A stretch of 64,000 bases of DNA from an uncultured Gemmatimonadota bacterium (GCA_964571855.1 CAZNDO010000017.1:8393-72392); one strand, 5' to 3'. Counted from the stretch's first letter, positions 17,646-39,129 are shown. Numbers and translations: made by a program. Notes: generated from the letters alone by a model not told the origin.

Positions 17646-17648
17646 GCC

Positions 17649-21780: not shown

Positions 21781-21812
21781 GCTACTTTGTCCACCAAGCG
21801 AACAAAGTCCGT
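21781..21812. promoter_or_regulatory. Inverted-repeat operator ACTTTGTCCAC-N3-GCGAACAAAGT, 10 bp upstream of the lipoprotein gene. It is site A of a motif that recurs three times.
   Basis: Read directly. The same half-site GCGAACAAAGT / ACTTTGTTCGC recurs at 34581-34603 and 39101-39129. Confidence 0.45.
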
Positions 21813-21821
21813 TCCGGAGGA

Positions 21822-23180
21822 ATGCCCATGATGCCGAGCGGCCGATCGGGCTGGGCCGTGGCGGCGGCCCTGGCCGCCTTCGGGGCGACCGGCTGCGAGC
21901 GCGACACCGGCGGCCTGGGCCCGGCCCCCGTGGACACCGACCCCGCGGTCTTCCTCGACGACTTCGCGGACGGCGTCATCTTCCAGCCGTTCCTCGACAC
22001 GAAGGTGGACGTGGCCGCCCGCGATCTCGAGCAGCGGCAGCGCGGCACGGCTTCCCTTCGGATCACCGTCCCCGGTCCGGGAGACGACACCGGACTCTAC
22101 GCCGGAGGCGCCTTCACCGCGGAGCAGGAGCGCGATCTCACGTCCTACAACGCGCTCACCTTCTGGGCGAAGGGCAGCCGGACGGCCACCCTGGACGTGG
22201 CCGGGCTGGGGAACGACAACACGGGCACATCCCGCTACACGGCCACCCGCTCCGCCATCCCCTTGACCACGGAGTGGACGAAGATCGTCCTCCCCGTCCC
22301 GCTGCCGGATCGGCACGGGCTGGAGCGCGGGCTGTTCTTTTTCGCCGAGGGGTTCGAGCAGGACCAGGGCTACACGCTGTGGTTCGACGAGGTGCAGTTC
22401 GAGAACCTCGCCGCGGTGACGAACCCGCGGCCCACGCTCCTCCCCGCCACGCGCTCCGTGTTCGTGGGCCAGACGGTGGCCATGCAGGACACGCGCACGA
22501 CGTTCGCCGTGGACGGCTCCGACGTGACCGTGTTCCACACGCCCTCCTACTTCACGTTCCTCTCGTCGGACGAGAGCGTGGCGCAGGTCGTGGGCGACGA
22601 GGTGCGCATCGTGGGCGGGGGAACCGCCATCATCACCGCGCGGCTCGGTGACGTCGTCGCGGGCGGCCGCGTGACGCTGAACTCCTCCGCGCCGCCGCCG
22701 GACACCGCGCCCACGCCCGCCGTCCCCGCCGCCGACGTGATCTCGCTGTTCAGCAACGCGTACGTCGATCGCCCGGTGGACACGTGGTCCACGTCCTGGG
22801 ACACGGCCGACGTCACCGATCTCTCGATCGCGGGCGACGACCTCAAGGCCTACACGGGGCTCGGGTTCGCCGGCATCGAGTTCGCCACGCCCACGATCGA
22901 CGCGTCGGCGATGACCCACTTCCACGTGGACGTCTGGGCGCCGGACGGCTTCTTCATCAAGCTCAAGCTCGTGGACTTCGGCGCGGACGGCCGCTTCGGG
23001 GGCGGCAACGACACGGAGTCCGCGGAGATCGGTTTCCTGATTGCCAACGGGGAGTGGGTCGGGTTCGATATCCCCCTGAGCAGCTTCACCGGTCTCGGGG
23101 CGCGGGCGCACCTCGCGCAGTGGATCCTGCTGGGGAACCCGAGCGTCCTGTACGTGGACAACGTCTACTTCCACAGGTGA
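21822..23180 (+). CDS. Surface lipoprotein with two beta-sandwich (CBM-like) modules flanking a Big_2 domain. It is a putative glycan-binding protein.
   Basis: GGAGG lies upstream of the ATG. The protein starts MPMMPSGRSGWAVAAALAAFGATGC, with the lipobox Cys. The Big_2-like segment is SSDESVAQVVGDEVRIVGGGTAIITARLGDVVAG. Confidence 0.65.
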   Translation: MPMMPSGRSGWAVAAALAAFGATGCERDTGGLGPAPVDTDPAVFLDDFADGVIFQPFLDTKVDVAARDLEQRQRGTASLRITVPGPGDDTGLYAGGAFTAEQERDLTSYNALTFWAKGSRTATLDVAGLGNDNTGTSRYTATRSAIPLTTEWTKIVLPVPLPDRHGLERGLFFFAEGFEQDQGYTLWFDEVQFENLAAVTNPRPTLLPATRSVFVGQTVAMQDTRTTFAVDGSDVTVFHTPSYFTFLSSDESVAQVVGDEVRIVGGGTAIITARLGDVVAGGRVTLNSSAPPPDTAPTPAVPAADVISLFSNAYVDRPVDTWSTSWDTADVTDLSIAGDDLKAYTGLGFAGIEFATPTIDASAMTHFHVDVWAPDGFFIKLKLVDFGADGRFGGGNDTESAEIGFLIANGEWVGFDIPLSSFTGLGARAHLAQWILLGNPSVLYVDNVYFHR

Positions 23181-23196
23181 TTCGGCGAAAGGCACG

Positions 23197-24447
23197 ATGC
23201 CCCGACGCGTACCGCCCCGTCCGAAACGTGCGCCCGGGTCCGGCCGACCTCGTCCCCTCGCGGATTCCGTCCTCCGGCTGATCTGGGAGAGGCGGCGGAT
23301 CTCGCGGGCCGACATCGCGCGCGAGGCCGTGCTCTCCCGTTCCACCGTGTCCGACATCGTGGGCGGCCTGCTCCCCGGCGGTCTCGTGGCGGAGGTCGGC
23401 GCGGGGGCGTCCCGCGGCGGCCGGCGCCCGATCGTCCTGGAGTTCCAGGACGACCACTGCGCCATCCTCGGCATCGAGATGGGCGCGGCCCACGTCGCGG
23501 TGGCGCTGACCGACCTGCGCGGGAGGATCCTCGCATGGTCGGAACGCCGCCATCCCGTCCGCTCCGACCCGAAGGGAACGCGCGCCCTGCTCGCGGAGCT
23601 GTGCGACGAGTGCCTGGAGGCCGGCGGGTGCGAGCGGCAGCGGCTGCTCGGGATCGGCGTGGCCGTCCCGAGCCCGGTGCACCCGTCGCACCCCGAGCGG
23701 CTCTCCGAGGTCGTGCTCCCCGCCTGGAAGGGACAGAGCCGGCTGGAGTCGCTGCGGGACCGCTACGGCGTCCCGCTCCTCGTCGACAACGACGCCAACC
23801 TCGGCGCGCTCGCGGAGCAGTGGTGGGGCGCGGGGCGCGGCGTGTCGGACTTCGCGTACATCAAGATCGCCACCGGCCTCGGCTCCGGGCACGTGATCGA
23901 CGGGCGCGTGTACCGCGGCGCCACCGGCGTCGCCGGGGAGATCGGGCACGTGGCCATCGATCCGCACGGCGCCCCGTGCGTGTGCGGGTTGCGGGGCTGC
24001 CTCGCCACGCTCGTCGGCGCCGCCGCGCTGGAGGCCCGGGCGCGCACCCTCCTCGTGCAGTACCCGGACAGCCGGCTCCTGGCCGGCTCGATCAACGTGG
24101 ACGCGATCGAGGACGCCGCACTCACCGGGGATCCGCTCGCCCTGCACGTGGTCCGGGAGGCGGCCGAGCACCTCGGCATCGCCATCGCGGGCATGCTGAA
24201 CCTCATGAACCCCAGCCTCGTGATCCTCGGCGGCGGGCTCTCGCGCGTGCGGGAACTCCTGCTCGCGCCGGTCCGCGAGACCACGCGCCGCCGCACGCTC
24301 GTCAGCTCGCTCGCGGCCTCGCAGATCCGGATCAGCGAGCTCGGCACGCGCGCGATCGCGCTGGGCGCGGCCACGCTGGTCCTGGACGCCGCTCTCGCGG
24401 ACCCGCGGCTGTTCCCCGATCCGGGCCGCCGGACCGGGACGCGATGA
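23197..24447 (+). CDS. ROK-family transcriptional regulator (HTH plus sugar-kinase-like domain)
   Basis: The N-terminal winged HTH is RRRISRADIAREAVLSRSTVSDIVGGLL. The ROK zinc motif is GHVAIDPHGAPCVCGLRGCLA. Confidence 0.85.
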   Translation: MPRRVPPRPKRAPGSGRPRPLADSVLRLIWERRRISRADIAREAVLSRSTVSDIVGGLLPGGLVAEVGAGASRGGRRPIVLEFQDDHCAILGIEMGAAHVAVALTDLRGRILAWSERRHPVRSDPKGTRALLAELCDECLEAGGCERQRLLGIGVAVPSPVHPSHPERLSEVVLPAWKGQSRLESLRDRYGVPLLVDNDANLGALAEQWWGAGRGVSDFAYIKIATGLGSGHVIDGRVYRGATGVAGEIGHVAIDPHGAPCVCGLRGCLATLVGAAALEARARTLLVQYPDSRLLAGSINVDAIEDAALTGDPLALHVVREAAEHLGIAIAGMLNLMNPSLVILGGGLSRVRELLLAPVRETTRRRTLVSSLAASQIRISELGTRAIALGAATLVLDAALADPRLFPDPGRRTGTR

Positions 24448-26120
24448 TGCGGCCGGCCTCGCCCGGCCGGGCCGCGGCCGTCGCGCGGGCGTGCGCGCTG
24501 GCGCTCGGGGTCGCCGGCTGCTCCCCCGAGCGGACGCCGCCGCCGCCCGGGATCCTGGTGGTGTCGCAGGAGCAGGCGGCCGCCTGGTCGCGGAACTTCA
24601 ACCCGCTCACCACCGCCGCCGCGCCGCGCTGGCCCACGATGGCGGGCGTGTACGAGCCCCTCTTCGTGTTCAACAGCGTACAGGCCGAGCAGGTGCCGTG
24701 GCTGGGCGTGGCCGCGGAGTGGGCCGAAGGGAACCGCGTCCTGAGGATCGCCACGCGCCGGGGCGTGCAGTGGTCGGACGGCGCGCCGTTCACGGCCCAC
24801 GATGTGGCGTACACGTTCGATCTCCTGCGCCGCCGGCCCGCGCTGGACCGGCGCGGCGTCTGGTCGTTCCTGGAGGACGTGACGGCGCCGTCCGACACGA
24901 CCGTGTCGTTCCGGTTCAAGCGGGTGTTCGTCCCGGGATTCGGCGAGGTGGCCGCGCAGCCCATCGTGCCGCGTCACGTCTGGGAGAAGGTGGAGGATCC
25001 CGTGACGTTCGCGAACGAGTCCCCGGTCGGCACGGGCCCGTTCACCGAGGTGCGCGTCTTCCGGCCGCAGGTGTACGAACTCGGACGGAATCCGCACTAC
25101 TGGCAGGCGGGCCGCCCCCTCGTGGAGGCGCTGCGCTTCCCCGCGTACCCGGCGAACGACCGCGCGAACCTGGGGCTGGTGTTCGACGAGGTGGACTGGG
25201 CCGGGAACTTCATCCCCGCGATCGACCGCGTGTTCGTGGAGCGCGACCCGGAGCACCACCGCTACTGGTTCCCGCTCACGGGGAGCACCGTGTTCCTGTA
25301 CGCGAACACCACGCGCCCCCCGTTAGACGACGTGCGCGTGCGCGAGGCGCTGAGCCGCGGCATCGACCGGGAACTGCTCGTGGACGTGGCCCTGCACCGG
25401 TACTCCCGCCCCGCCGACGCCACCGGGCTGAGCGACGCGTACGCCGCGTGGCGCCGGGACGACATCGCGGCCGCCGCGACGTGGACCGTCCACGATCCCG
25501 GTGCGGCCGCGGCGCTCCTGGACAGCGCGGGCTTCGCGCGCGGGCCCGACGGGATCCGCCGCGACCGGGACGGCCGCGCCTGGAAGTACGAGATCCTCAC
25601 CGTCTCCGGATGGTCGGACTGGGTGCGCGCGGCGCAGGTCATCGCCCGCGGGTTCCGCGAGCTCGGCATCGACGCATCCGTGCGCACGTACGACTTCGGG
25701 GCCTGGTTCCAGGCGGTGCAGGAGGGCCAGTTCGACCTCACGATCGGCTGGTCCAACGAGGGCCCCACGCCGTACGTCTTCTACCGCTGCCTCATGTCCG
25801 CCGGCACGGTGAAGCCCGTCGGGGAGACCGCCGGCGCGAACTGGCACCGGTACGCGAGCGTCGCGGCGGACTCCGTGCTCGCCGCGTTCGAGCGCGAGGT
25901 GGACGTCGCGCGCCAGCACGAGCTCGCCGCCGAGCTGCAGCGCACGTTCGCCCGGGAGATCCCGGCGATCCCGCTGTATCCGAACCCGTCGTGGGCGGAG
26001 TACAACACGCGCCGCTTCGAGGGCTTCCCCTCGGCGGCGGATCCGTACGCGGACCCGTCCCCGAACAAGTTCGACCGCGGCGAGATCCTCCTCGTCCTCA
26101 CATCGCTGCGGCCGCGGTAG
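24444..26120 (+). CDS. ABC transporter substrate-binding lipoprotein (family 5, Opp/Dpp-like, here oligosaccharide-associated)
   Basis: ATGATG overlaps the ROK stop. The protein starts MMRPASPGRAAAVARACALALGVAGCS and has an SBP_bac_5 profile. Confidence 0.8.
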   Translation: MMRPASPGRAAAVARACALALGVAGCSPERTPPPPGILVVSQEQAAAWSRNFNPLTTAAAPRWPTMAGVYEPLFVFNSVQAEQVPWLGVAAEWAEGNRVLRIATRRGVQWSDGAPFTAHDVAYTFDLLRRRPALDRRGVWSFLEDVTAPSDTTVSFRFKRVFVPGFGEVAAQPIVPRHVWEKVEDPVTFANESPVGTGPFTEVRVFRPQVYELGRNPHYWQAGRPLVEALRFPAYPANDRANLGLVFDEVDWAGNFIPAIDRVFVERDPEHHRYWFPLTGSTVFLYANTTRPPLDDVRVREALSRGIDRELLVDVALHRYSRPADATGLSDAYAAWRRDDIAAAATWTVHDPGAAAALLDSAGFARGPDGIRRDRDGRAWKYEILTVSGWSDWVRAAQVIARGFRELGIDASVRTYDFGAWFQAVQEGQFDLTIGWSNEGPTPYVFYRCLMSAGTVKPVGETAGANWHRYASVAADSVLAAFEREVDVARQHELAAELQRTFAREIPAIPLYPNPSWAEYNTRRFEGFPSAADPYADPSPNKFDRGEILLVLTSLRPR

Positions 26121-26130
26121 GGGGAACCGG

Positions 26131-27114
26131 ATGCGCCATCTCCTCCAGAGGCTGGGCTTCTACCTGATCGCGGGCTGGACCGCCGTCACGCTCAACTTCT
26201 TCCTCCCGCGGCTCATGCCGGGCGACCCTGCCACGGCGCTCTTCGCCCGGTTCCGCGGCCGGCTGGGTCCCGAGGCCCTCGACGCGCTGCGCGAGACGTT
26301 CGGCCTCACCGACGCCCCGCTCCTGTCGCAGTACCTGACGTACCTGGCGCACATCCTGCGGGGCGACCTCGGCATCTCGGTCGCGTACTTCCCGGCGCCG
26401 GTGGCCTCGGTGCTCGGCACGGGGCTGCTCTGGACGGCGTTCCTCGCGGGGTCGGCGCTGCTCATCAGCTTCGCGCTGGGCACCGTCCTCGGCATCGTGG
26501 CCGCCTGGTGGCGACGCGGCTGGGTGGACACGTGGCTGCCGTCCGCGCTCGTGTTCGTGGGAGCGTTCCCCTACTTCTGGCTGGCCATGGTCGCCCTCTA
26601 CGTCCTGGGGTTCACGGCCGGCCTCTTCCCGCTGGGGCACGCGTACGGGGAGGAGTCCGTGCCCGCGTTCACGGCGGCGTTCGCGCTCGACGTGCTGCGG
26701 CACGCCGCGCTCCCCGTGGGCACGGTGGTCGTGGCCACGCTGGGCGGATGGCTCCTCACCATGCGGAACACCATGGTCACCGTGCTCGGCTCGGATTACG
26801 TGAACCTGGCCCGGGCGAAGGGGCTGCCCACGTCCCGCGTGGTCCTCCGCTATGCCGCGCGCAACGCGCTGCTGCCCAGCGTCACGGGGTTCGGCATGGC
26901 GCTGGGGTTCGTCCTCGGCGGATCGCTGCTCACGGAGATCGTGTTCTCCTACCCGGGCCAGGGCTACCTGCTGGTCCAGGCCGTGCGCAACCAGGACTAC
27001 CCGCTGATGCAGGGCATCTTCCTCGTCATCACGCTGGCCGTGCTGGGCGCCAACTTCCTCGTGGATCTGGTGTACCTGCGGCTGGATCCGCGCACGCGGG
27101 AGTCCGGGTCGTGA
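26131..27114 (+). CDS. ABC transporter permease (DppB/OppB-like)
   Basis: Six TM segments and a BPD_transp_1 profile. Confidence 0.8.
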   Translation: MRHLLQRLGFYLIAGWTAVTLNFFLPRLMPGDPATALFARFRGRLGPEALDALRETFGLTDAPLLSQYLTYLAHILRGDLGISVAYFPAPVASVLGTGLLWTAFLAGSALLISFALGTVLGIVAAWWRRGWVDTWLPSALVFVGAFPYFWLAMVALYVLGFTAGLFPLGHAYGEESVPAFTAAFALDVLRHAALPVGTVVVATLGGWLLTMRNTMVTVLGSDYVNLARAKGLPTSRVVLRYAARNALLPSVTGFGMALGFVLGGSLLTEIVFSYPGQGYLLVQAVRNQDYPLMQGIFLVITLAVLGANFLVDLVYLRLDPRTRESGS

Positions 27115-28052
27115 GCGCCGCCGCCGAGATCCGCGGCGCGGGCCTGGCCGCGTGGGGGCGGGCCATCCGCCGCGATCGCAAGGCCACGATCGGCGCGGCC
27201 ATCCTCGCCGTGTTCCTCGCGCTGGCCGTCGCCGGGCCGTGGTTCGTGGGCGATCCGGACGCGCTGGTCGGCGTGCCGCTGCAGCCCCCGTCCGCCGCGC
27301 ACTGGCTCGGCACCACCGGCCAGGGGCAGGACGTCCTCGCCCAGCTCGTGGTGGGCACGCGCACCTCCCTGGCCATCGGGTTCGGCGTGGGCCTCGCCGT
27401 GGTTCTCATCGGGGCGCTGATCGGGGTCGCCGCCGGCTACTTCGGCGGGCGCGTGGACGCCGTGCTGTCCCTGCTGTTCAACGTGTTCCTCGTCCTGCCC
27501 GGATTGCCGCTGGCCATCGTGATCGCCGCGTACCTCCCGTCCGGGCCGCTCACGCTCGCGCTGGTGCTCGTGGTGACGGGCTGGGCGTGGAACGCGCGCG
27601 TGCTCCGCGCGCAGACGCTGGCGGTGCGCCGCCGCGACTTCGTGGCCGCGGCCGTGGTGTCCGGGGAGTCCCACGTCCGCATCGTGACGCGCGAGATCCT
27701 CCCCACGCTCACGTCGCTCCTCGTGTCCCAGGTGATCGGCAGCACGGTGTACGCCATCGGCGCGCAGGTGGGCCTGGAGTTCCTCGGGCTCGGCGACGTC
27801 GCGGCCGTCACCTGGGGCACGAACCTGTACTGGGCGCAGAACGACTCCGCGCTCCTCACGCGCGCGTGGTGGACGTTCGCTCCCACCGGCGCCTGCGTGG
27901 CGCTCGTGGGGTTCGGGCTCACGCTCCTGAACTCCGGCTTCGACGAGATCTCCAACCCCCGGCTGCAGCTGGAGCGCGCATGGCGCGAGCACCTCGGGCG
28001 ACACGGCACGTCGCCGGGGCGCTCCACGCCGGTGGTGAGCCGCCATGCCTGA
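27111..28052 (+). CDS. ABC transporter permease (DppC/OppC-like)
   Basis: The GTG start overlaps the upstream stop (GTGA). The protein has a polytopic permease profile. Confidence 0.75.
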   Translation: MSAAAEIRGAGLAAWGRAIRRDRKATIGAAILAVFLALAVAGPWFVGDPDALVGVPLQPPSAAHWLGTTGQGQDVLAQLVVGTRTSLAIGFGVGLAVVLIGALIGVAAGYFGGRVDAVLSLLFNVFLVLPGLPLAIVIAAYLPSGPLTLALVLVVTGWAWNARVLRAQTLAVRRRDFVAAAVVSGESHVRIVTREILPTLTSLLVSQVIGSTVYAIGAQVGLEFLGLGDVAAVTWGTNLYWAQNDSALLTRAWWTFAPTGACVALVGFGLTLLNSGFDEISNPRLQLERAWREHLGRHGTSPGRSTPVVSRHA

Positions 28053-29028
28053 GCCCCTGCTCTCCATCCGCGACCTCTCCGTGGACTACGTCACGGACCG
28101 CGGTCCCGTGCGCGCCCTCGACGGCGTGTCGCTGACCGTGGCGCGCGGCGAGACGCTGGGCATCGCCGGCGAGTCGGGCAGCGGCAAGTCCACGCTGGCG
28201 CAGGCGCTGCTGCGGATCCTCCCGCCGCCCGCCGTCATCTCCTCCGGCGAGGTGCGGTTCGAGGGCGTGGACATCCTGACCATGGACGAGGCGGGCCTGC
28301 GCGCCCTGCGCTGGCGGCGGATCGCCATGGTGTTCCAGAGCGCGATGGACTCGCTGAACCCCGTGATCCCGGTCGGCGAGCAGATCGTGGACACGCTCCG
28401 CGCGCACGGCGCCGCCGACCCGCGCGAGGCGACGCGGCGCGCGGCCGAGCTGCTGGGGATGGTGGACATCGCGGCCGACCGCCTGCGCGCCTATCCGCAT
28501 CAGCTGTCGGGCGGCATGCGGCAGCGCGTGGGCATCGCCCTCGCGCTCGCGCTGGACCCGGCGCTGCTCATCCTGGACGAGCCCACCACGGCGCTCGACG
28601 TCATCGTGGAGCGGGACATCCTGGATCGCATCCGGGACCTGCAGGGCCGGCTGGGGTTCGCCGTGCTCTTCATCACGCACGATCTCGCGCGCATGCTGCA
28701 GGTGTCCGACCGCGTCGCCGTCTTCTACGCGGCCCGCCTCGCGGAGATCGGTCCGGTGGAGTCGCTGCGGCGGACGCCGCGCCACCCGTACACGGAGGGA
28801 CTGCTGCGCGCCTTCCCGTCCGTGCACGGGGACTCGTCCCCGGACAGCATCCCCGGCGCGCCGCCGAGCCTCATGTCACCGCCCGCGGGATGCCGCTTCC
28901 ACCCGCGCTGTCCGCGCGTGGTGGACCGCTGCCGCACGGACACTCCCCGCGCCGTGACCTCCGCCGGCGGGCACGTGGCCTGGTGCCACCTCGCGGACGT
29001 CCCGCCTCACAGCGAGAAGTGCAGGTAG
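28045..29028 (+). CDS. ABC transporter ATP-binding protein (DppD/OppD-like)
   Basis: Walker A GESGSGKST, signature LSGGMRQRV and Walker B LLILDEPTTALD. The C-terminal oligopeptide-type CxxC region is present. Confidence 0.85.
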   Translation: MPEPLLSIRDLSVDYVTDRGPVRALDGVSLTVARGETLGIAGESGSGKSTLAQALLRILPPPAVISSGEVRFEGVDILTMDEAGLRALRWRRIAMVFQSAMDSLNPVIPVGEQIVDTLRAHGAADPREATRRAAELLGMVDIAADRLRAYPHQLSGGMRQRVGIALALALDPALLILDEPTTALDVIVERDILDRIRDLQGRLGFAVLFITHDLARMLQVSDRVAVFYAARLAEIGPVESLRRTPRHPYTEGLLRAFPSVHGDSSPDSIPGAPPSLMSPPAGCRFHPRCPRVVDRCRTDTPRAVTSAGGHVAWCHLADVPPHSEKCR

Positions 29029-32000
29029 GTCCGCACCTCCCACTCGCTCCCGTTGGCGGACACCGCCGTCGGATCGCAGACCGGCACGCCGTAGGCGTCC
29101 TCCACCAGGGCCGGGCAGAACCTCGGCGAGTTCTCGTCCAGGGACCGCCACATCCCGCGGACGCCGACGCGCGTCTGCGGATGTGCGAACCAGCGCGGCG
29201 CGCCGAGCGTGTGCGATAGGTCGGCCATCAGCTGCGCCGGGAACGTGAGGTTGAAGTCCCGGTGGTAGTCGTACGGGCCCCAGTCGTTGAACTTCGCATA
29301 CGCCGCGAGCGCCTCGGCCTTCCACGTGATCCGCACGCCGGCACCGGCGCGACGGACCAGGCGCGGGCTGTCGCCGGGCGGCTCGGTCGTCCCCGCGTAC
29401 ATCTGCAGGATGGAGCGGAGGTCCGGGCCGGCCGCGGACACGATGCGCGCGGTCACCTCCCACAGGTCACGCGCCGGCGTGGATGTGGGGAACGCGAACG
29501 TGGTCCGCCCGTCGCCGAGGATGCCGATGGCCGCGTCCTGCGAGGTCTCGAACTCACGCACGACGAACCCCAGGCTGGCCGCGAAGCCCGCGTCCTCCCG
29601 CACGTCGTTGTCCCAGGCCCACATCCACGTGGCCGGCGTGGGATCGTAGGCGAGGAGCAGCTCCGCCGCGGTCATCTCGCGGTTCGCGCGCACCGCGAAG
29701 GGATCGTCCAGCACGTTGCGCAGCCGTCCCGGCGCCGGCGCGTCGGCCGGCATCGGCCCCACGATGGGCTTCTGCCACAGGAAGTTCGGCGCCACCTGGA
29801 AGCGCCCGAGGTTCCACGCCAGCCCGGTGAGCACATTCGTCTGGTTCCCGGATCCGCTGTCCTCGAGCCGCCACCCGGTGAACGTGATGGTCTCGGTGGG
29901 CCCGCCGTCCGCCACGAGGCCCATGTACGCGCCCTGCGCGTACCAGTTCCAACGCCCCTGCTGCCACGTGAGCTTCGCTTTCGCGCCGAACGCGTCCGAC
30001 GTGCGCACCGTGTCCCGCAGGACGCGAACGCCGGACGGGGTCTCCTCCGCGAGGTCGAACGTGTCGCCCACCTTCGTGTCCCCGGACCAGATGCCGCCGG
30101 TCTCCAGGCCGATCGGCCCCCGGCGGCCCGCGAACTGCAGCGTGGCCTTGCGCGTCTTCGGGAGCGGCACCGCGATCGAGCTGACCACCGAGGACTGCCG
30201 CGCCACGTCCTCCTGGTAGATCCCGGTGACGTCGAGCGGGCCCACGCGCCGGCCGTACTTCAGGAGCACCGCCGGGTTCGCGCCCCACCACAGCTCCGGA
30301 CCGATCGCGAGCGCCGCGCCCGACAGGCTCCGCTTCCCGTGCATCTCCACGCCGAGCGGCGCCTCGCCGTTGTACGTGTCGATGTTCCCGCCGTAGTTCG
30401 CCTCGCGGTACAGCCCGAAGAAGTCCCCGTCGTACCCCCAGTGGTAGTGGCCGGTGCGGTAGAACCCCTCCAGCGAGAACCAGCGATCGTCCCAGGAGAC
30501 GCCGGCGCGGTACACCTTCACGCGCTCGATGTCCCGCAGCTCCAGCGAGTCCCCGTCGGCCACCACCGTCCGCGGCCGTCCGCGGTTCTCGTAGAAGATC
30601 TCGTCGATGGGGTTCTCGGGAACGCGGCCGAGCACGTTGACCGAGAGCGTGCCCGTGACGTTCTGCGACGGCGCCGCCTCGACGTCGATGAAGAACGACT
30701 GCATCTGGTCGAAGCCGCGGAACGCCGGCACCGCGGAGCCCGGAGCGGGATCCTGCGGCGTGGTCGTCTTCCGGCCGCCCGTGTTGATCGTCTCGAACAC
30801 CAGGCGCAGCCCGGTGATGCGCGCCCGCGCGGCGGACTCCCCGAGCAGCACGGCGCGGTCGCCCCGCGCCCGCAGCGCGGCGTCGGCCGAGCGGATGGAC
30901 GCGAAGTGGCGGCGCACCGCCGGCAGGTCCGTCCCCGGCGCGTACGGATCCAGCCGGAAGGCGTCCTGCAGCACGTAGTACGCGGCGCGCGGGTACACGT
31001 CGTACAGGCCGCGCGCGTCCGGGCGACCCTTCGCCGTGATCCCCCACCACTCCTCGTTCATGTTGTTGTCGCCTTCCACGTAGTCTTCCACGTAGCCGCC
31101 GTTCGGCCAGGAGGCGTTCGTGTCGTGCACGTCCAGCCGCTCCTCCTGCCGGAACTTCCACCAGCCGTCGCTCCATTGGAAGACCAGTCCGCCGATGCAG
31201 TTCCCGGCCCGCCCCTTCCCGGCGGACTGCTCGTAGATCTCCTGCCACTGCCCCAGGAGGTAGCGGCTCTGCATCGCCTGGTCCTCGCGCATCTCCCGCG
31301 CGTTCCAGGCATCGGCGCCGAACTCCGTGAACAGCACGGGAAGGCCCAGCTTCTCCTTCACCACGTCGTAGAGATCGCGCGCGGAGATGCCGCGGTAGCA
31401 GTTCGTGCCGAACACGTCGAGGTCGGGGCACTCCTTCGCGATGATGTCGATGTACTGGACGTCCCCGTTCGCGATGGCCACCGGCCGGTCGGGGTCGCGC
31501 CGCTTCACCTCGCGGGCGACCTCCCCGAACAGCGAGTACAGGAACGTGGCGCGGGCGGCGTCCCGCTCCCCCTCCGGGAGCGCCTCGATCTCGAAGGAGC
31601 TCCAGGAGAGTCCGTAGTTGTTCTCGTTCCCGAGCAGCCACATCAGCACGCCGGGCGTGCCGCGGAAGTCGTCCACGAGCTGCAGGATCTCGGCCTTCAC
31701 CGCCTCGCGGAGCCGCGGATCCGAGTAGTCGGTCTGCGGGTACCACACGCCGTCCAGCGTGAACCCGTAGCGCGCCATCGGGTGGTTCACGACCGTCCAG
31801 ATGCCCCAGCGGTCGTGGATGTACCGCACCCAGCGCGGCGGCACGCCGGCGTACTGGCGGAGCGCGTTCACGCCCATGTCGCGCAGCAGCGGCATCTCGC
31901 GCTCCAGCGCGTCGACGATGACGTCGTCGGGCTGGGTCCAGAGGCTGTACGCGTAGTTCTGCCCGATCGGGACGTAGTCCCAGTTCACTCCGAGGACCAT

Positions 32001-32162
32001 GAAGTCCCGCCCGTCCACGACGAGCCGTTCGCCGGACGCGTCGGACACGACGCGCACGACGGAGCCGGCGGGACCGGCGCCGGGGTCAGCGGCGGCAACG
32101 CCGGTCCCCGCCGCGGCGAACCCCAGCGCCGCCAGCGCGGCCGCCACCGCCGCGCGGATCAT
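29007..32162 (-). CDS. Secreted glycoside hydrolase (clan GH-A TIM-barrel-like catalytic module) with a roughly 560-aa beta-rich C-terminal domain of unknown function
   Basis: The ATG at 32162 overlaps the GH1 stop (ATGA). The signal peptide is MIRAAVAAALAALGFAAAGTGVAAA. The acid/base-like motif is LLGNENNYG and the nucleophile-like motif is PVLFTEFGADAW. The C-terminal half shows alternating amphipathic beta-strand patterns. The 1578-aa track ORF fuses this gene with upstream genes read in another frame. Confidence 0.65.
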   Translation of the reverse strand: MIRAAVAAALAALGFAAAGTGVAAADPGAGPAGSVVRVVSDASGERLVVDGRDFMVLGVNWDYVPIGQNYAYSLWTQPDDVIVDALEREMPLLRDMGVNALRQYAGVPPRWVRYIHDRWGIWTVVNHPMARYGFTLDGVWYPQTDYSDPRLREAVKAEILQLVDDFRGTPGVLMWLLGNENNYGLSWSSFEIEALPEGERDAARATFLYSLFGEVAREVKRRDPDRPVAIANGDVQYIDIIAKECPDLDVFGTNCYRGISARDLYDVVKEKLGLPVLFTEFGADAWNAREMREDQAMQSRYLLGQWQEIYEQSAGKGRAGNCIGGLVFQWSDGWWKFRQEERLDVHDTNASWPNGGYVEDYVEGDNNMNEEWWGITAKGRPDARGLYDVYPRAAYYVLQDAFRLDPYAPGTDLPAVRRHFASIRSADAALRARGDRAVLLGESAARARITGLRLVFETINTGGRKTTTPQDPAPGSAVPAFRGFDQMQSFFIDVEAAPSQNVTGTLSVNVLGRVPENPIDEIFYENRGRPRTVVADGDSLELRDIERVKVYRAGVSWDDRWFSLEGFYRTGHYHWGYDGDFFGLYREANYGGNIDTYNGEAPLGVEMHGKRSLSGAALAIGPELWWGANPAVLLKYGRRVGPLDVTGIYQEDVARQSSVVSSIAVPLPKTRKATLQFAGRRGPIGLETGGIWSGDTKVGDTFDLAEETPSGVRVLRDTVRTSDAFGAKAKLTWQQGRWNWYAQGAYMGLVADGGPTETITFTGWRLEDSGSGNQTNVLTGLAWNLGRFQVAPNFLWQKPIVGPMPADAPAPGRLRNVLDDPFAVRANREMTAAELLLAYDPTPATWMWAWDNDVREDAGFAASLGFVVREFETSQDAAIGILGDGRTTFAFPTSTPARDLWEVTARIVSAAGPDLRSILQMYAGTTEPPGDSPRLVRRAGAGVRITWKAEALAAYAKFNDWGPYDYHRDFNLTFPAQLMADLSHTLGAPRWFAHPQTRVGVRGMWRSLDENSPRFCPALVEDAYGVPVCDPTAVSANGSEWEVRTYLHFSL

Positions 32163-33553
32163 GGACGCCTCCCGTGCGGCAGCTCCAGCACGGCCTCGTC
32201 GATGGTCCCGTTCGAGATCACGTCGCGGTACCAGAAGGCGCTGTCCTTGGGCAGCCGCTCCTGCGTGGCGAAGTCCACCCACCACAGGCCGAAGCGCTTC
32301 TGGTAGCCGAATCCCCACTCGAAGTTGTCCATGAGCGACCAGGCGAAGTAGCCGTCCACCGGAACGCCGTCGCCGCGGGCGCGCAGCACGGCGCCGAGGT
32401 GGGCGCGAAGGTACTCCACCCGTCGCGAGTCGGCGATGCGGCCGGTCGCATCCGGCGCGTCGCCGTAGGCGGCGCCGTTCTCCGTGATGAGGATCCGCGG
32501 CGGGGCGTAGTCCCTCTGCACGCGGACCAGGAGGTCGTGGAGCCCCTGCGGGTGGACCTCCCAGCCCATGTCGGTCAGCTCCTCCTTCGGCGCCATGGGC
32601 ACGCCGGCGAAGCCGCCGTCCTTCCCCGCGCGCATCACCGCGCGGCTGTAGTAGTTGATCCCCAGGAAGTCCGTCGGCGCGCCGATGACCTCCATGTCCC
32701 CCGGGTGCGCGAACGGCATGGCGGCGGACGCGAGGTGTCCGCGGCGCACGCGGTCCCGCACGGCGTCCTCGGGATACGATCCCCGGTAGAGCGGGTCCAG
32801 GTACCAGCGGTTGAAGAACCCGTCGAAGTTCCGGGCGGCATCCGCGTCCGCCGCGCTCGCGGACGCGGGGTACGACGGCGTGAGGTTCAGGACGATGCCC
32901 ACCTGCGCCTCCCGGACCCGCGCGCGCAGCCGCTCCACCGCGCGGCCGTGCGAGAGGAGGACATGGTGGGCCACCACCAGGGACTCCGCGGGATCGCGAT
33001 GCCCGGGCGCATGCTCGCCGGTCTCGTGGCCCAGCGTGGCGATGCACCACGGCTCGTTGTGCGTGACCCAGTGATCCACGCGGTCGCCGAGTCGTTCGGC
33101 CACCACGTCGGCGTATTCCGCGAACGCATCCACGGTCTCGCGCGCCGCCCATCCCCCGCGGTCCTGCAGCGCCTGGGGAAGGTCCCAGTGGTACAGCGTG
33201 ACCAGCGGGCGGATCCCGGAGGCGAGCAGCGCGTCCACGAGGGAGTCGTAGAAGTCCAGGCCGGCCGGATTCACCGCGCCGCGCCCGTCCGGAATCACGC
33301 GCGGCCACGCGATCGAGAAGCGGTACGCGTTCGCCCCGAGCCATCGCAGGAGCTCCGCGTCGGCGGACCAGCGGTGGTAGTGGTCGCAGGCGACCGAGGC
33401 ATCCGACCCGTCGGCGATCCGCCCGGGCGTGCGGGCGAACCGGTCCCAGATGGACTCCCCGCGTCCGCCCTCGTCGAAGGCGCCCTCGATCTGGTGGGCG
33501 GACGTGGCCGTCCCCCACAGGAAGTCGCTCGGAAACGCGTTCCGGTTCGTCAC
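32159..33553 (-). CDS. GH1 beta-glucosidase
   Basis: GGAAGGAG lies upstream of the GTG at 33553, which overlaps the ATPase stop (GTGA). NAFPSDFLWGTATSAHQIEGA is present, with the acid/base motif TENG in ILITENGAAY and the nucleophile-region motif THNEPW (VTHNEPWC). Confidence 0.85.
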   Translation of the reverse strand: MTNRNAFPSDFLWGTATSAHQIEGAFDEGGRGESIWDRFARTPGRIADGSDASVACDHYHRWSADAELLRWLGANAYRFSIAWPRVIPDGRGAVNPAGLDFYDSLVDALLASGIRPLVTLYHWDLPQALQDRGGWAARETVDAFAEYADVVAERLGDRVDHWVTHNEPWCIATLGHETGEHAPGHRDPAESLVVAHHVLLSHGRAVERLRARVREAQVGIVLNLTPSYPASASAADADAARNFDGFFNRWYLDPLYRGSYPEDAVRDRVRRGHLASAAMPFAHPGDMEVIGAPTDFLGINYYSRAVMRAGKDGGFAGVPMAPKEELTDMGWEVHPQGLHDLLVRVQRDYAPPRILITENGAAYGDAPDATGRIADSRRVEYLRAHLGAVLRARGDGVPVDGYFAWSLMDNFEWGFGYQKRFGLWWVDFATQERLPKDSAFWYRDVISNGTIDEAVLELPHGRRP

Positions 33554-34554
33554 CGCTCGGCTCCTTCCGGGTAGAGATGGCAGCGCACCGATCCGCCCGC
33601 CAGGTCCCTCGGGCGGGGATCCTCGGTGCGGCACCGGTCCAGGATGTCGGGGCAGCGGGGCGCGAACGGGCAGCCCGCCGTCTCCCCCAGCTCCGCGCGA
33701 ACCGGCGCCGGCAGCCCCGGCGCCGGAGCGCGCCGTTCCGCATCGGCGATGGCGGCGAGCAGCGCGCGCGTGTACGGATGGGCCGGCCGCGCGATCAGCG
33801 CGTCCGGCGCGCCCTCCTCCACGATGCGGCCGCGGAAGAGCACGAGCACGCGGTCCGCCAGGTAGCGCGCGGACGCGAGATCGTGCGTGATGAGAAGGAT
33901 GGAGAGGCCCCGCTCCCGCTTGAGCGACGCCAGGAGCTTCAGGATCCCCATGCGGATGGACACGTCGAGCATGGACGTGGGCTCGTCCGCCACCAGGATC
34001 TCGGGCTCCACCGCCAGGGCGCGCGCGATCGCCACGCGCTGGCGCTGCCCGCCGGAGAGCTCGTAGGGGCGACGCGTGATGAACTCCTCCGCGGGCTCGA
34101 GGCCCACGGTGCGGAGCAGTCGGAGCGCCGCTTCCCGCGCCTCGTCCCGGCCTCCGGTCACGTGGCCGTGCCGGCGGAGCGGGCGGACGAGGTGGTGCTC
34201 CACGTCATGGGCGGGATTCAGCGATCCGAAGGGATCCTGGAACACCATCTGGACCCGCCGGCGGTACGCGAGGGAGGCGCCGCGCCGCTCCCGCGCCAGC
34301 AGGTCCTGCCCGTCGAGCCGGATCTCGCCGCCGTCGGGGTGGTCGAGGCGCAGCAGCAGTCGGGCGATGGTGCTCTTCCCGCTGCCCGACTCCCCGACCA
34401 GCGCCACCGCCTCCCCGCGGCGGACGCGGAAGGAGACGTCGCGGACCGCGGTGACGGGAGCGATCCGGCGCAGGAACCCGTTGCCGGCAAAGGACTTGTG
34501 GAGGCCGCGAACGTCCAGGAGATCGGCAGGGGCTGCCGCCGGCAGAGCGGGCAT
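33550..34554 (-). CDS. ABC transporter ATP-binding protein (DppF/OppF-like)
   Basis: Walker A GESGSGKST, signature LSGGQRQRV and Walker B ILVADEPTSMLD. It is translationally coupled to the GH1 gene. Confidence 0.85.
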   Translation of the reverse strand: MPALPAAAPADLLDVRGLHKSFAGNGFLRRIAPVTAVRDVSFRVRRGEAVALVGESGSGKSTIARLLLRLDHPDGGEIRLDGQDLLARERRGASLAYRRRVQMVFQDPFGSLNPAHDVEHHLVRPLRRHGHVTGGRDEAREAALRLLRTVGLEPAEEFITRRPYELSGGQRQRVAIARALAVEPEILVADEPTSMLDVSIRMGILKLLASLKRERGLSILLITHDLASARYLADRVLVLFRGRIVEEGAPDALIARPAHPYTRALLAAIADAERRAPAPGLPAPVRAELGETAGCPFAPRCPDILDRCRTEDPRPRDLAGGSVRCHLYPEGAER

Positions 34555-34580: not shown

Positions 34581-34603
34581 ACTTTGTTCGCCTGCCGAAC
34601 ATA
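34581..34603. promoter_or_regulatory. Inverted-repeat operator ACTTTGTTCGC-N4-CGAACATAGTG in the divergent region between the ABC ATPase and CBM-protein genes. This is site B.
   Basis: Read directly. One mismatch to the consensus half-site. Confidence 0.45.
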
Positions 34604-34721
34604 GTGTAGGATCCTCCGGACGGTGTCAAGAAAGAGCGGCTCCCGCGGGGACCCGACCTTGGCACCCGCATCGCCGGCCCGGAAGGACCGGACGATCGTG
34701 CCACCGAGAGGAGACACGGTA

Positions 34722-35372
34722 ATGAGGAATCGCAACAGCGTGGTGTGCTCCCTGGTCGCCGCCTCGTCGCTCGTGCTGTTCGGGGCGCCGGAGCCCGCTG
34801 CCGCGCAGCTGCTCAACCCCGGGTTCGAGAGTCCGGACGCGTCCGGCGGGGACGTGGCCGGGACGGCGGACTGGAACTCCTTCAACTTCGTGTTCACGAC
34901 GGCCGCGATCTCGCGCAGCGGCAGCCAGTCCCTGAAGACGTTCGGGCCGTTCGGTCCGGGCGGCGGCTCGGGCTGCGTGCAGCGGGTCCCGGCCGCGCCG
35001 GGTCAGACGTGGGTGGGCGAGATCTACGCGATGAACGCCTCGTTCGACCCGCTGGATGCCGTGGACTTCGGCGTGTACAAGATCGAGTTCCTGGACGCGG
35101 GCGGGAACCTCGCCGCGGGTGGCCTCTTCGGCGTCGACGTCTTCGAGTCCGTTCAGTTCAACGCGTCGTTCGGCACGGACACGTGGACCCTGCTCGGGGT
35201 GGGCACGGCCGCGGCCCCGCCCAACACGGCGTGGGCGCAGGCCGTGATCGTGAAGGTGGACCTCGACGGCGCCAACGGCGGCTCGATCTTCTGGGATGAC
35301 GCCTCGCTCCGTCAGCCGACGGTGGCGGTGGAGTCCTCGTCGTTCGGGCGCATCAAGCAGCTGTTCCGCTAG
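34722..35372 (+). CDS. Secreted CBM4/9-like carbohydrate-binding protein
   Basis: GAGAGGAGA lies upstream of the ATG. A signal peptide is followed by the hallmark AAQLLNPGFESP N-terminus of CBM_4_9. Confidence 0.7.
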   Translation: MRNRNSVVCSLVAASSLVLFGAPEPAAAQLLNPGFESPDASGGDVAGTADWNSFNFVFTTAAISRSGSQSLKTFGPFGPGGGSGCVQRVPAAPGQTWVGEIYAMNASFDPLDAVDFGVYKIEFLDAGGNLAAGGLFGVDVFESVQFNASFGTDTWTLLGVGTAAAPPNTAWAQAVIVKVDLDGANGGSIFWDDASLRQPTVAVESSSFGRIKQLFR

Positions 35373-36889: not shown

Positions 36890-36980
36890 GAACAAGCCCC
36901 CGCGAAGGGTGCAGGCGGCCGCGTCCGGGTTCCGGGCGCGGCCGCTCCGTTTCCGGGGCGCCCGGCCCGCGGGCACCCGG

Positions 36981-39047
36981 CTAACGCAGCAGGGTCATCT
37001 TCCGGAGCGAAGTGCCGTCGGCCGTGAGCAGCCGGTAGAAGTAGGTGCCGGCCGCGAGCCGCCGGCCGGCGTCGTCGCGACCGTCCCACGCGACACGGTG
37101 GCTGCCGGCCGGCCGCGCGCCCGCCACGAGCGTGCGCACCTTGCGCCCGGCCACATCGAAGATCGACAGCTCCGCCACGCCTTCGCGCGCGAGCTCGAAG
37201 AGGATGTCGGTGCCCGGCGAGAAGGGATTGGGCTCATTGCGGAGCCCCGCCGGCGGGCCGGCCGCCGTGACGGGCGCCGCCGTCGGGTCGGGGCCGTAGC
37301 CGAAGTCGAGAGCCGGCGCGATCTCCTCGCACGCCAGCGCGCGCGCGAAGATGTCCGGGGTCCCGGTGCCGTCCGGGTCGAACGTGGGCACGAGCCCCGC
37401 GGGCAGCGAAGCCGCGTCCACGCGCACCTCGTAGTCCCCGCCGAGCAACGCCGGGAACTGGTACGTGCCGCCCGTTCCCGTGGTCGTGGTGGCCACGACG
37501 AGCCCGAGGGCCGGGTCGAAGAGCCGCACGGTGACGCCGACCAGCCCCGCCTCGCCCCCGTCCGGCACGCCGTCGCCGTCCGCGTCGTTCCACACGCGCC
37601 CGGAGATCGCCGCGGTCTGGCGCGTGAACGCCCAGCGATCCGTGCGGAAGGTCACGTCGGCGCCGCTGAGGCTCACCACGGAGATCACGACGACGATCAG
37701 TTGCCCGTTCCCGCCGGCCGACACCGGCCGCGGATCGAAGATGCCGTTGCCGCCGAAGTGGAAGGAGTTGTCGTCGAAGAAGCTCGCGAGGGGGATGGTC
37801 ACGCGCTGCCAGCCGCCGCCCGCGATCGCGCCGGGGCCGGAAGGACCGACAACGAGGTTGTACTGGAACTCGTCGTCGCCGCCGTTCGGCGTCCCGGGGA
37901 TGGAGTTGTTCCCGTCGTCGTCGTCCTGCAGGTTGATCTCCAGGCGGTAGCTCTGCCCGGGGTCCGGGTTGATCCACAGCGTGAAGTGCGTGGCGTCGGA
38001 GACGTTCATGGGGTTGCCGCGGCCGAAGCCGCCGAAGAACCCCGGCGTGCCGCCGGAGCCCCAGCCGGTCTGGAGCGACACGTCGCAGCCCTGGAGAGGC
38101 GGCAGGTCCGTGAAGTTCGCGCCGATCCCGCCGCCGCCGACCGAGCCGCCGAACGAGAACCAGTTGTTGCCGAAGGGATTCCCGTGCTCCATCCCGTCGA
38201 AGAGCGTGGTGCACGCGCCGAGGTCCACGCCCGGCTCCTGGTACACGCGCACCCAGTCCACGATCAGGTGCTGCGGGAACACGGTGGTGCCGTCCGGCGG
38301 ACCCGGGAGGTTCCCGCCGACCGCCATGTTGAGCAGCAAGTGGAAGCGCTCGTCGAAGGGAGCCGGGTACGGCCCGCCCGTGGAGTACCAGTTCTTCTGC
38401 TCCGCGTACTGGAAGCCGTCCACGTACCAGCGGATCGAGCAGTCGTCCCACTCCAGCGCGAACACGTGGAAGTCGTCGTGGAAGGTGCCGGAGGGCAGCG
38501 TGTACGAGTTCGACGTGAACGTGTTCGCCGGGTACGTGCCGCCGTAGTGGAGCGTGCCGAAGACGTTCGCCGGCTGGTGGCCGAGGTACTCGAGGATGTC
38601 GATCTCGCCGCTCGCGGCCCAGGTTCCGTACACCGCATCGGTCGGGAGCATCCACAGTGCCGGCCACAGCCCCCGCCCGATGGGCATCTTCGCCCGCATC
38701 TCGATGCGCGCGTGCGTCCAGTCCCCGCGGTTCAGCGTGCGGAGCCGGGCGGACGTGTAGCTCGCCCCGCCGAAGTTCTCCTGCTTGGCCGTGATCGTGA
38801 GGAGGCCGCCACCCAGGGTGGCGTTCTCGGCGCGGTAGTACTGGAGCTCGTTGTTCCCCCAGCCGCACAGCGACGGGCAGCCCGTGCCGATCTGGGGCTC
38901 CCACTTGGACGTGTCGAGCTGCGTGCCGTCGAACTCGTCCGACCACACCAGCTCCCAGTCCGCCCGCGCGGGGGCGGCGGAAGCGAGGGCGAGGGCGGCG
39001 ACGGCGGCAGCGGGAACGACGAGCCGCGGTCCGAGGTGCAGGAACAT
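36981..39047 (-). CDS. GH16 endo-1,3(4)-beta-glucanase (laminarinase-type) with a Cna-B/SdrD-like domain and a FlgD-Ig/T9SS-like C-terminal domain
   Basis: GGAGG lies upstream of the ATG at 39047, and a signal peptide follows. The GH16 catalytic motif ExDxxE appears as GEIDILEY. The Cna-B-like segment is ISGRVWNDADGDGVPDGGEAGLVGVTVRLF. The C-terminal domain reads NEPNPFSPGTDILFEL..FDVAGRKVRTL..WDGRDDAGRRLAAGTYFYRL. Confidence 0.85.
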   Translation of the reverse strand: MFLHLGPRLVVPAAAVAALALASAAPARADWELVWSDEFDGTQLDTSKWEPQIGTGCPSLCGWGNNELQYYRAENATLGGGLLTITAKQENFGGASYTSARLRTLNRGDWTHARIEMRAKMPIGRGLWPALWMLPTDAVYGTWAASGEIDILEYLGHQPANVFGTLHYGGTYPANTFTSNSYTLPSGTFHDDFHVFALEWDDCSIRWYVDGFQYAEQKNWYSTGGPYPAPFDERFHLLLNMAVGGNLPGPPDGTTVFPQHLIVDWVRVYQEPGVDLGACTTLFDGMEHGNPFGNNWFSFGGSVGGGGIGANFTDLPPLQGCDVSLQTGWGSGGTPGFFGGFGRGNPMNVSDATHFTLWINPDPGQSYRLEINLQDDDDGNNSIPGTPNGGDDEFQYNLVVGPSGPGAIAGGGWQRVTIPLASFFDDNSFHFGGNGIFDPRPVSAGGNGQLIVVVISVVSLSGADVTFRTDRWAFTRQTAAISGRVWNDADGDGVPDGGEAGLVGVTVRLFDPALGLVVATTTTGTGGTYQFPALLGGDYEVRVDAASLPAGLVPTFDPDGTGTPDIFARALACEEIAPALDFGYGPDPTAAPVTAAGPPAGLRNEPNPFSPGTDILFELAREGVAELSIFDVAGRKVRTLVAGARPAGSHRVAWDGRDDAGRRLAAGTYFYRLLTADGTSLRKMTLLR

Positions 39048-39100
39048 GCGATGCCTCCGGCGGGCGGGCGAAGGTCCGGGGGAAGAACCGGGGGGATTAT

Positions 39101-39129
39101 ACACTTCGTGCGGCCTGCGAACAAAGTGT
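39101..39129. promoter_or_regulatory. Inverted-repeat operator ACTTCGTGCGG-N3-GCGAACAAAGT, about 55 bp upstream of the GH16 start. This is site C.
   Basis: Read directly. The right half-site is perfect. Confidence 0.4.

Follow-up and report, generated by a model that had tools for sequence, protein, structure and literature searches.

Does a palindrome that recurs upstream of carbohydrate-active genes mark a single regulon, and which protein would read it? The question is raised by a stretch of 64,000 nucleotides (nt) from an uncultured Gemmatimonadota bacterium (GCA_964571855.1, CAZNDO010000017.1:8393-72392; hereafter the window, meaning the whole stretch analysed), in which three inverted repeats lie before genes predicted to act on beta-glucan and a regulator of the ROK family is encoded at 23197-24447. 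An earlier reading of the sequence alone had proposed that the repeats define a beta-glucan utilisation regulon controlled by one repressor, the ROK protein. From the comparative analysis described here, we consider it likely that the three palindromes are the operators of one dimeric, sugar-responsive repressor and that the ROK protein is that repressor.

Three palindromic sites and their conservation

The sequence-only reading had located the palindrome at three positions, which held to within a few bases, and had allowed 3-4 nt between the half-sites, a spacer that proved to be 3 nt in all three. Each site is 25 bp long and matches ACTTTGT-N11-ACAAAGT with 0-1 mismatch:

21784..21808, no strand assigned: putative operator S1, ACTTTGTCCACCAAGCGAACAAAGT, 31.6 bits; overlaps a putative -10 GCTACT (21781-21786) and the start region
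34581..34605, no strand assigned: putative operator S2, ACTTTGTTCGCCTGCCGAACATAGT, 37.5 bits; common to two divergent units
39103..39127, no strand assigned: putative operator S3, ACTTCGTGCGGCCTGCGAACAAAGT (ACTTTGTTCGCAGGCCGCACGAAGT on the minus strand), 28.4 bits; in one orthologous locus (L060) the lipoprotein-ROK operon begins with a GH16 gene, and the site is in front of it

The bit scores were obtained with a matrix built from the sites of other genomes. When about 64,000 window positions were scored with this orthologue-only matrix, the next-best position reached 2.2 bits, and the best scores of 100 Markov-simulated windows had a mean of 4.5 bits and a 95th percentile of 11.3, with a single outlier of 30.5. 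Searching the whole window for ACTTTGT-N11-ACAAAGT with up to three mismatches returned S1, S2 and S3 and nothing else (0.11 expected). Perfect half-sites had been claimed as well, and the 11-mer GCGAACAAAGT indeed occurs exactly once per site, on the plus strand in S1 and S3 and on the minus strand in S2; with up to one mismatch it has three matches in the window against 0.23 expected, a number reached in none of 100 shuffles. All three sites are in non-coding gaps 5' of one or two regulon units, S1 being 20 nt upstream of the lipoprotein gene start and S3, described earlier as just upstream of the GH16 gene, 56 nt upstream of its start (ATG at 39047, minus strand).

Since the window has a G+C content of 71.8%, most long open reading frames (ORFs) are spurious, and the gene map below is the one on which third-position GC (GC3), Pfam, NCBIfam and the genes called independently on the identical public contig agree (lengths in amino acids, aa; ABC, ATP-binding cassette; HTH, helix-turn-helix; T9SS, type IX secretion system):

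21828..23180, plus strand: LIPO, 450-aa lipoprotein (Cys23), first gene of operon 1; predicted CBM-like / Ig-like / CBM-like
23197..24447, plus strand: ROK-family transcriptional regulator, 416 aa, the proposed repressor; PF00480, HTH, GGRR linker, Zn motif
24444..26120, plus strand: family-5 (Opp/Dpp-type) solute-binding lipoprotein (SBP); SBP_bac_5, 6e-63
26131..27114, plus strand: ABC permease 1; BPD_transp_1
27111..28052, plus strand: ABC permease 2; BPD_transp_1, OppC_N
28045..29028, plus strand: DppD-type ABC ATPase, last gene of operon 1; ABC_tran, oligo_HPY
29007..32162, minus strand: BIGGH, 1051-aa secreted glycosidase, last gene of operon 2; GH158-like TIM barrel and predicted C-terminal beta-barrel
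32159..33553, minus strand: GH1 beta-glucosidase, no signal peptide seen; Glyco_hydro_1, 1e-166; TIGR03356 BGL, 619 bits against a cut-off of 478.5
33550..34554, minus strand: DppF-type ABC ATPase (the second ATPase), first gene of operon 2; ABC_tran, oligo_HPY; gene call
34722..35372, plus strand: 216-aa protein, family unassigned by Pfam; GC3 0.93, gene call; a homologue follows a site in orthologous locus L025
35459..36889, plus strand: CBM4_9 protein with a T9SS-type C-terminal domain; CBM_4_9, FlgD_ig, Por_Secre_tail
36981..39047, minus strand: GH16 endo-beta-glucanase, 688 aa, with SdrD_B-like and T9SS-type C-terminal domains; Glyco_hydro_16, 3e-18; EglC, BglS and Por_Secre_tail models

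Sequence comparison supports a predicted regulon of four transcription units, namely LIPO-ROK-SBP-permease-permease-DppD, DppF-GH1-BIGGH, the 216-aa protein with CBM4_9, and GH16. The GH1 gene overlaps each of its neighbours, DppF and BIGGH, by 4 nt, and the coupling of ROK to the SBP gene noted by the sequence-only reading was borne out, the stop of the former and the start of the latter sharing ATGA at 24444-24447. For S2, the divergent position described earlier stood, with the correction that the 216-aa ORF, which has no Pfam match, intervenes before the CBM4_9 gene. The CBM4_9 orthologue comes after a class-B site in L044 and L051. The DppD-type ATPase and BIGGH genes are convergent, their 3' ends sharing 22 nt (29007-29028); comparable 3' overlaps of 6-16 nt are present in L040, L042, L059 and L067.

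Hundreds of ROK orthologues with 65-72% identity were found in metagenome-assembled genomes (MAGs) labelled Candidatus Eisenbacteria / Eiseniibacteriota, Krumholzibacteriota and others, and 80 loci around them, 1.22 Mb in all, formed the orthologous set. Close orthologues with the same synteny (L002, L014, L020, L025, L069 and others) come from MAGs labelled Gemmatimonadota, Fibrobacteraceae, Bacteroidota, Latescibacterota, Eisenbacteria and Krumholzibacteria, which suggests inconsistent taxonomic labelling of the clade in public records. Within this set, the operator pattern with up to two mismatches gave 82 sites in 64 loci, compared with none in ten Markov simulations. The frequency matrix from the 78 unique sites reads aCTTTGTTCGg-nnn-cCGAACAAAGt; positions 8-11 and 15-18, which the search pattern had left free, are themselves conserved, positions 8-10 and 16-18 at 85-89% and positions 11 and 15 at 67%. 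Variants termed 'GATC' and consensus operators occur within the same genomes.

The sites are strongly tied to the gene set of the window. Among the 98 sites with 20 bits or more, 91 are found no further than 450 nt upstream of a window-regulon homologue (LIPO 70, GH1 13, BIGGH 2, ROK 2, CBM 2, 216-aa protein 1, GH16 1), and none falls inside a mapped gene. The seven high-scoring 'orphan' sites are, where readable, beside further FlgD_ig-tailed secreted proteins or short unknown ORFs, and nothing about them contradicts the regulon. Comparison of orthologous loci, which the sequence-only reading had recommended, showed that the site is kept in 60 of 64 regions upstream of LIPO, the head of the lipoprotein-ROK operon (three of the four others have it one gene further up), and in all 14 regions upstream of GH1/DppF. 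The layout of S2 is repeated in those same 14 regions, with the conserved sequence ...ACATAGTgTATGAT-N11-cTGTCAAGa. A tblastn map gave the general order SITE-LIPO-ROK-(small GH16)-SBP-permease-permease-DppD-←BIGGH-←GH1-(←DppF)-SITE-CBM4_9, where left arrows denote the minus strand; LIPO-ROK is the conserved core that adjoins the site in nearly all loci, and loci of the Krumholzibacteria type are without the ABC genes and retain both sites.

Most orthologous loci carry a gene for a GH16 lipoprotein of about 280 aa between ROK and SBP (e.g. L003, 11300-12069), which is missing from that place in the window and in L015. The GH16 protein of the window instead has 688 aa and a T9SS tail, and its gene is 12 kb away with its own putative operator, S3.

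A scan blind to proteins gave a concordant picture. The exact palindrome CTTTGTTCGG-N3-CCGAACAAAG was searched as DNA only in 241 million metagenomic records and returned 44 loci, in 37 of which the site is directly upstream of a LIPO or BIGGH homologue (31 by tblastn, with correct orientation, and six from a flanking ORF that has the N-terminus of one of these two proteins). BIGGH was the commonest gene directly downstream of the operator, and three matches, in low-GC contigs with no adjacent ORF, look like chance. The sequence-only reading would have fallen had the motif been frequent and without positional bias; instead it is rare, keeps to the 5' regions of this gene set both in the window and in the 1.22 Mb of loci, and has a strongly biased position in the metagenomes, in keeping with the regulon first proposed. 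Matches to the three-mismatch pattern within the BIGGH gene in 11 orthologous loci (L003 at 18689, L005 at 18649, L050 at 18667 and eight more) were rejected as operators; they encode the conserved peptide DFVxGxNNMNEE and score -7 to 9 bits, and are therefore a coding coincidence.

The ROK protein, the promoters and the rival explanations

The ROK domain (PF00480) covers residues 91-397 of the regulator with an E-value of 3.2e-56. Residues 24-400 align to positions 15-388 of the NagC model, and end-to-end alignments were obtained for the Mlc model as well as for NagC, and for the structures of Lmo0178, Mlc and the VC2007 type. The sequence contains an HTH segment (RISRADIAREAVLSRSTVSDIV), a Gly/Arg linker (SRGGRRP) and the zinc motif GH-x(9-11)-CxCG-x2-GC, here GHVAIDPHGAPCVCGLRGC (GH-x9-CxCGxxGC), in which H251, C261, C263 and C268 are invariant among 24 orthologues. 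None of the Pfam HTH models passed for the ROK protein of the window; close orthologues match HTH_24, MarR and IclR-HTH. In ROK regulators the GGRR, or Gly/Arg, linker has been implicated in operator contact (PMC4288165), and such regulators bind 23-bp palindromes from which sugar releases them (PMC3553997, PMC4288165). By sequence, the protein has the full-length layout of a NagC/Mlc-type repressor, and the operator feature of ROK repressors is present too, a 25-bp palindrome being found at promoters that include the one of the ROK operon itself (60 of 64 loci).

Two narrower identities were rejected. A ROK sugar kinase is out on the degenerate phosphate-binding motif (LGIEMGAAH, for DxGxT or a DIGGT-like sequence), the 90-aa N-terminal HTH extension and a glucokinase model score of 178 against a cut-off of 260. 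Orthology to NagC or Mlc is out as well, since scores of 207 and 176 with NF047937 and NF049930 compare with cut-offs of 650 and 530, and the protein is a member of the family only.

These features bear on the explanation that competes best, namely that the palindrome is a real operator of a factor encoded elsewhere and that ROK is otherwise employed, as a sugar kinase or as the regulator of other genes. In its favour, about a dozen metagenomic matches have the site beside BIGGH and no ROK gene in the few kilobases present, and the pairing of ROK with the sites is itself drawn from sequence comparison. We nevertheless regard this explanation as improbable: the best-conserved site heads the operon containing the ROK gene in nearly all of the 80 loci, the locus has no other conserved DNA-binding regulator, the 25-bp palindrome with its two 11-bp arms resembles the 23-bp palindromes of ROK regulators, and the protein has an HTH and is without the phosphate-binding motif of the kinases. 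The presence of a full-length, repressor-type ROK gene within the operon of the best-conserved site supports the one-repressor reading.

Alignment of the sites on the operator showed a conserved cTTGACA upstream. Of 145 sites, 121 have an exact TTGACA at a distance of 18-21 nt from one edge of the operator, compared with about 0.1 expected from a background of 6e-5 per nt, and at this distance the -10, typically cATACT, therefore overlaps the first bases of the operator. Two of the elements in the window were recorded as features:

21759..21764, plus strand: putative -35 TTGACA of the lipoprotein-ROK-ABC promoter, read from sequence, conserved across loci
39096..39101, minus strand: putative GH16 -10, a perfect TATAAT one base past the operator, read from sequence

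The predicted promoters fall into two arrangements. At S1, TTGACA is followed by a 16-nt spacer and GCTACT, and on the minus strand at S2, TTGACA (34629-34624) is followed by 17 nt and CACTAT (34606-34601), a -10 that gains, in this class, from a conserved change of A to T at operator position 22 (ACATAGT). In both cases TTGACA lies some 17-19 nt upstream of the operator, which therefore covers the -10 and the transcription start. On the plus strand at S2, TTGTTC (34584-34589) within the left half-site precedes, by 17 nt, TAGGAT (34607-34612), which begins one base past the operator and reads TATGAT in orthologues. S3 has the same arrangement on the GH16 strand, with the -35-like TTGTTC (39124-39119) inside the left half-site, 17 nt, the TATAAT listed above and, later, GGAGG-N6-ATG at 39047. 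Read in this way, every operator would sit between -35 and about +15, which fits a repression geometry. Within 21759-21781, the TGA stop codon of the upstream Ser/Thr kinase gene is inside the -35 TTGACA of the lipoprotein promoter, and the spacer of that promoter forms a GC-rich hairpin, CCGACCGGCCGGTCGG, which was flagged by a terminator scan and may double as the terminator of the kinase gene.

This geometry bears on a second rival, to which we give a small chance, slightly below that of the first: that ROK binds and activates, or has a dual role, at the promoters with a weak -35, those of GH16 and the plus-strand unit of S2. At S3 and on the plus strand of S2, TTGTTC matches only three of six positions and is inside the operator, and NagC is an activator at some promoters. 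At these same promoters, however, the operator centre is about 26 nt upstream of the expected start, between a -35 and a -10 with a normal 17-nt spacer, so that RNA polymerase would be blocked and not recruited, and at S1 and on the minus strand of S2 the operator covers the -10 and the start.

The inverted repeat could also work as an RNA hairpin in 5' leaders, affecting stability, attenuation or processing. The sites do fold into short hairpins (-4.2 to -8.4 kcal/mol), and at S1 and on the minus strand of S2 transcripts would include the repeat; at S3 and on the plus strand of S2, most of it is upstream of the -10 and would stay untranscribed. In a set of 100 unique sites, pairing is broken by 229 of the 286 changes that affect one side and survives in only 27 of the 53 that affect both, indicating that the half-site sequence is conserved and the pairing is not. 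The distance from the repeat to TTGACA is fixed, Rfam gave no match and shuffled versions of S3 fold as well as S3 itself (z = -0.85), all of which makes an RNA element very improbable. Chance matches, or remnants of repeated or mobile sequence, are refuted: one of the 100 Markov simulations did give one 30.5-bit match, but three sites are present against the 0.11 expected, dozens of divergent genomes, with flanks that are not conserved, keep them at orthologous positions, and no extended repeat surrounds them.

Several points weigh against the ROK repressor itself. That the protein binds the sites and is released by sugar comes from comparison and not from experiment, and we also infer the sign of regulation. 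A strict sigma-70 consensus scan of 21000-40000 called no promoters, so that the promoter model rests on the conservation of TTGACA across genomes, and the proposed promoter anatomy accepts hexamers that match at only three of six positions in some places. S1 and S3 have one degenerate half-site each (2 and 3 mismatches, respectively), and affinities may differ. Finally, the site scan spans 64 kb of this genome, over which a local regulon and membership of a larger one are not separable.

With these points in mind, repression by ROK would proceed as follows. The operator, two 11-bp half-sites (aCTTTGTTCGg) 3 bp apart, is placed on the promoter in such a way that bound ROK would lie over the -10 and the start at S1 and on the minus strand of S2; at S3 and on the plus strand of S2, the left half-site would double as a weak -35, TTGTTC, with a TATAAT-like -10 one base beyond the operator. 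Bound ROK would then exclude RNA polymerase at four transcription units, its own operon included, which amounts to autoregulation. Surface proteins would bind and cut beta-1,3 or mixed-linkage glucan, an Opp-type ABC transporter that needs products of operons 1 and 2 would bring in the oligosaccharides, and GH1 would free glucose. Glucose or a beta-glucobiose, our guess at the effector by analogy with other systems, would bind ROK, and ROK would leave the DNA.

Each element of the sequence-only reading survived a test that could have gone against it, and the sequence evidence supports the reading as a whole. For phyla without cultured representatives (MAGs of the Eisenbacteria / Krumholzibacteria type), it would provide a testable regulatory code of carbohydrate use, made up of a 25-bp operator with its weight matrix, four promoters and a candidate repressor. 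Any MAG can be searched for the regulon with the motif, which picked out LIPO and BIGGH, the genes bound most closely to the system, without protein information.

Substrate, surface proteins and surroundings

As the sequence-only reading had it, the genes behind the sites are predicted to be active on beta-glucan (GH16, GH1, a GH158-like glycosidase, CBM4_9 and a CBM-Ig-CBM lipoprotein). GH1 scores above the NCBIfam equivalog cut-off for beta-glucosidase, and the models hit by the GH16 protein are those of laminarinase and 1,3-1,4-glucanase. From GH16, GH1, the fold of LIPO and the likeness of BIGGH to GH158, the substrate is most likely beta-1,3 or mixed-linkage glucan. The two ATPases are in different operons behind the same operator, an arrangement that makes functional sense only if both units are co-regulated.

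LIPO had been described as a CBM/Big_2 lipoprotein preceded by the first site. The position of the site was as described; the label is recovered only through the predicted structure and longer homologues, since LIPO itself had no match in Pfam, NCBIfam or PDB sequence searches and no CBM or Big_2 hit of its own. Its AF2 model, of high confidence (pLDDT 89.5), is CBM-like / Ig-like / CBM-like, with Foldseek matches to tandem CBM22, to the surface glycan-binding protein (SGBP) SGBP-B of a Bacteroides beta-glucan locus (7kwb), to CBM11 bound to mixed-linkage glucan and to Big_2-CBM56, and the longer homologues contain Big_2, CBM_11 and CBM4_9 domains. The model indicates that LIPO is probably a surface glycan-binding protein.

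BIGGH gave a weak GH2_C hit in Pfam and weak profile matches in the PDB to GH158 (6pal, 2e-4; 9oro, 1e-3). Its AF2 model (pLDDT 70) has a TIM barrel at about residues 36-445, followed by about 600 aa with some 26-28 long antiparallel strands. The top Foldseek matches were 9p26, 9oro and 6pal (GH158), with E-values of about 1e-11, low TM scores and a root-mean-square deviation of about 20 Å, and the C-terminal half matched BtuB, FecA, AlgE, MOMP, OprD-like proteins and porins; no Pfam family was found for the C-terminal 607 aa. On the strength of the model, BIGGH may be an enzyme-pore fusion. Neither the Pfam-scanned ORFs of the locus nor the other large ORFs of the window yielded a SusC/SusD pair or a TonB-dependent receptor, and in this the locus departs from a polysaccharide utilisation locus of the Bacteroidota type. 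A bolder proposal, which we put forward tentatively and consider rather doubtful, is that the operator marks a SusC/D-free beta-glucan system common to Eisenbacteria, Krumholzibacteria and related uncultured lineages, in which BIGGH alone would perform the outer-membrane step; as a GH158-like laminarinase joined to an outer-membrane barrel of about 26 strands, it would cut at the surface, pass the products through its own pore and be co-regulated with an Opp-type importer whose ATPases are split over two operons. Among the papers available, nothing relevant turned up on a ROK regulon in Eisenbacteria or on the fusion of GH158 with a beta-barrel. Should the predicted structure be right, such a fusion could change the picture of glycan uptake outside Bacteroidota.

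Many secreted proteins in the window end in FlgD_ig / Por_Secre_tail domains (4819-6624, 35459-36889, 36981-39047, 41415-43841 and 46914-48974), which implies type IX secretion in this organism. Directly upstream of the GH16 promoter and in the same direction, an AbiEi/AbiEii toxin-antitoxin pair and a GIY-YIG nuclease gene (39165-41322, minus strand) look like an inserted mobile or defence module beside a relocated GH16 gene. Many of the genes around the locus are of signalling or defence types (2-1816, 14670-17648, 17649-20498, 20203-21762, 53864-57569 and 62214-63998), among them those for three Ser/Thr kinases, an extracytoplasmic function (ECF) sigma factor, a TPR-CHAT protein, a Schlafen-like helicase and two radical-SAM/SPASM proteins.

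Comparison with known regulators and beta-glucan loci

The closest functional parallel is BglR of Thermotoga maritima (TM0032), a ROK repressor of beta-glucan and beta-glucoside genes that responds to glucose and cellobiose (Kazanov et al., 2013; PMC3553997). As with BglR, the ROK gene studied here is in a beta-glucan/beta-glucoside operon, autoregulation is proposed and palindromic operators of about 23 bp are near the promoter. The ROK regulators of Thermotoga were validated by electrophoretic mobility shift assays and their regulons reconstructed by comparative genomics (PMC3553997), and the present regulon was reconstructed by the same comparative logic. The operators themselves are unrelated, AATTTCTTTCTGAGGAAGATAGA for BglR and ACTTTGTTCGG-N3-CCGAACAAAGT here, with lengths of 23 and 25 bp, respectively. 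The ROK protein of the window is closer to Lmo0178, NagC and Mlc (E-values of about 1e-45 to 1e-38) than to the Thermotoga ROK protein 2hoe (3e-27, N-terminal part only), and BglR is therefore an analogue and not an orthologue. Unlike Thermotoga, the organism is an Eisenbacteria-like diderm of the FCB group, and the predicted regulon has several promoters and includes surface proteins with T9SS tails.

With NagC and Mlc of Escherichia coli and Lmo0178 of Listeria, the protein shares a winged HTH, the GGRR linker and a ROK domain with the Zn motif, in the same order and at the same length, and the operators are likewise quasi-palindromic with TT/AA in each arm. It differs in its target genes and in the presumed effector, which would be a beta-glucan product and not N-acetylglucosamine-6-phosphate or sequestration by PtsG. 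As a conventional ROK sugar regulon, the system would add a lineage and not a principle.

The beta(1,3)-glucan loci of Bacteroides encode GH16, GH158 and GH3 enzymes, SGBPs and SusC/D (Dejean et al., 2020, PMC7157763; Tamura et al., 2021, PMC7974029). GH16 is present here too, and by fold the predicted catalytic domain of BIGGH resembles BuGH158 (6pal) and GH158(Pro), and LIPO resembles SGBP-B (7kwb). In contrast to those loci, no SusC/D was found among the large ORFs of the window, inner-membrane import is predicted to be of the Opp-type ABC kind, the proposed regulator is a ROK repressor and GH1 replaces GH3. Taken together, these comparisons support a regulon that is functionally analogous, and not orthologous, to that of Thermotoga BglR, with an enzyme set like that of the Bacteroides beta(1,3)-glucan loci combined with ABC import.

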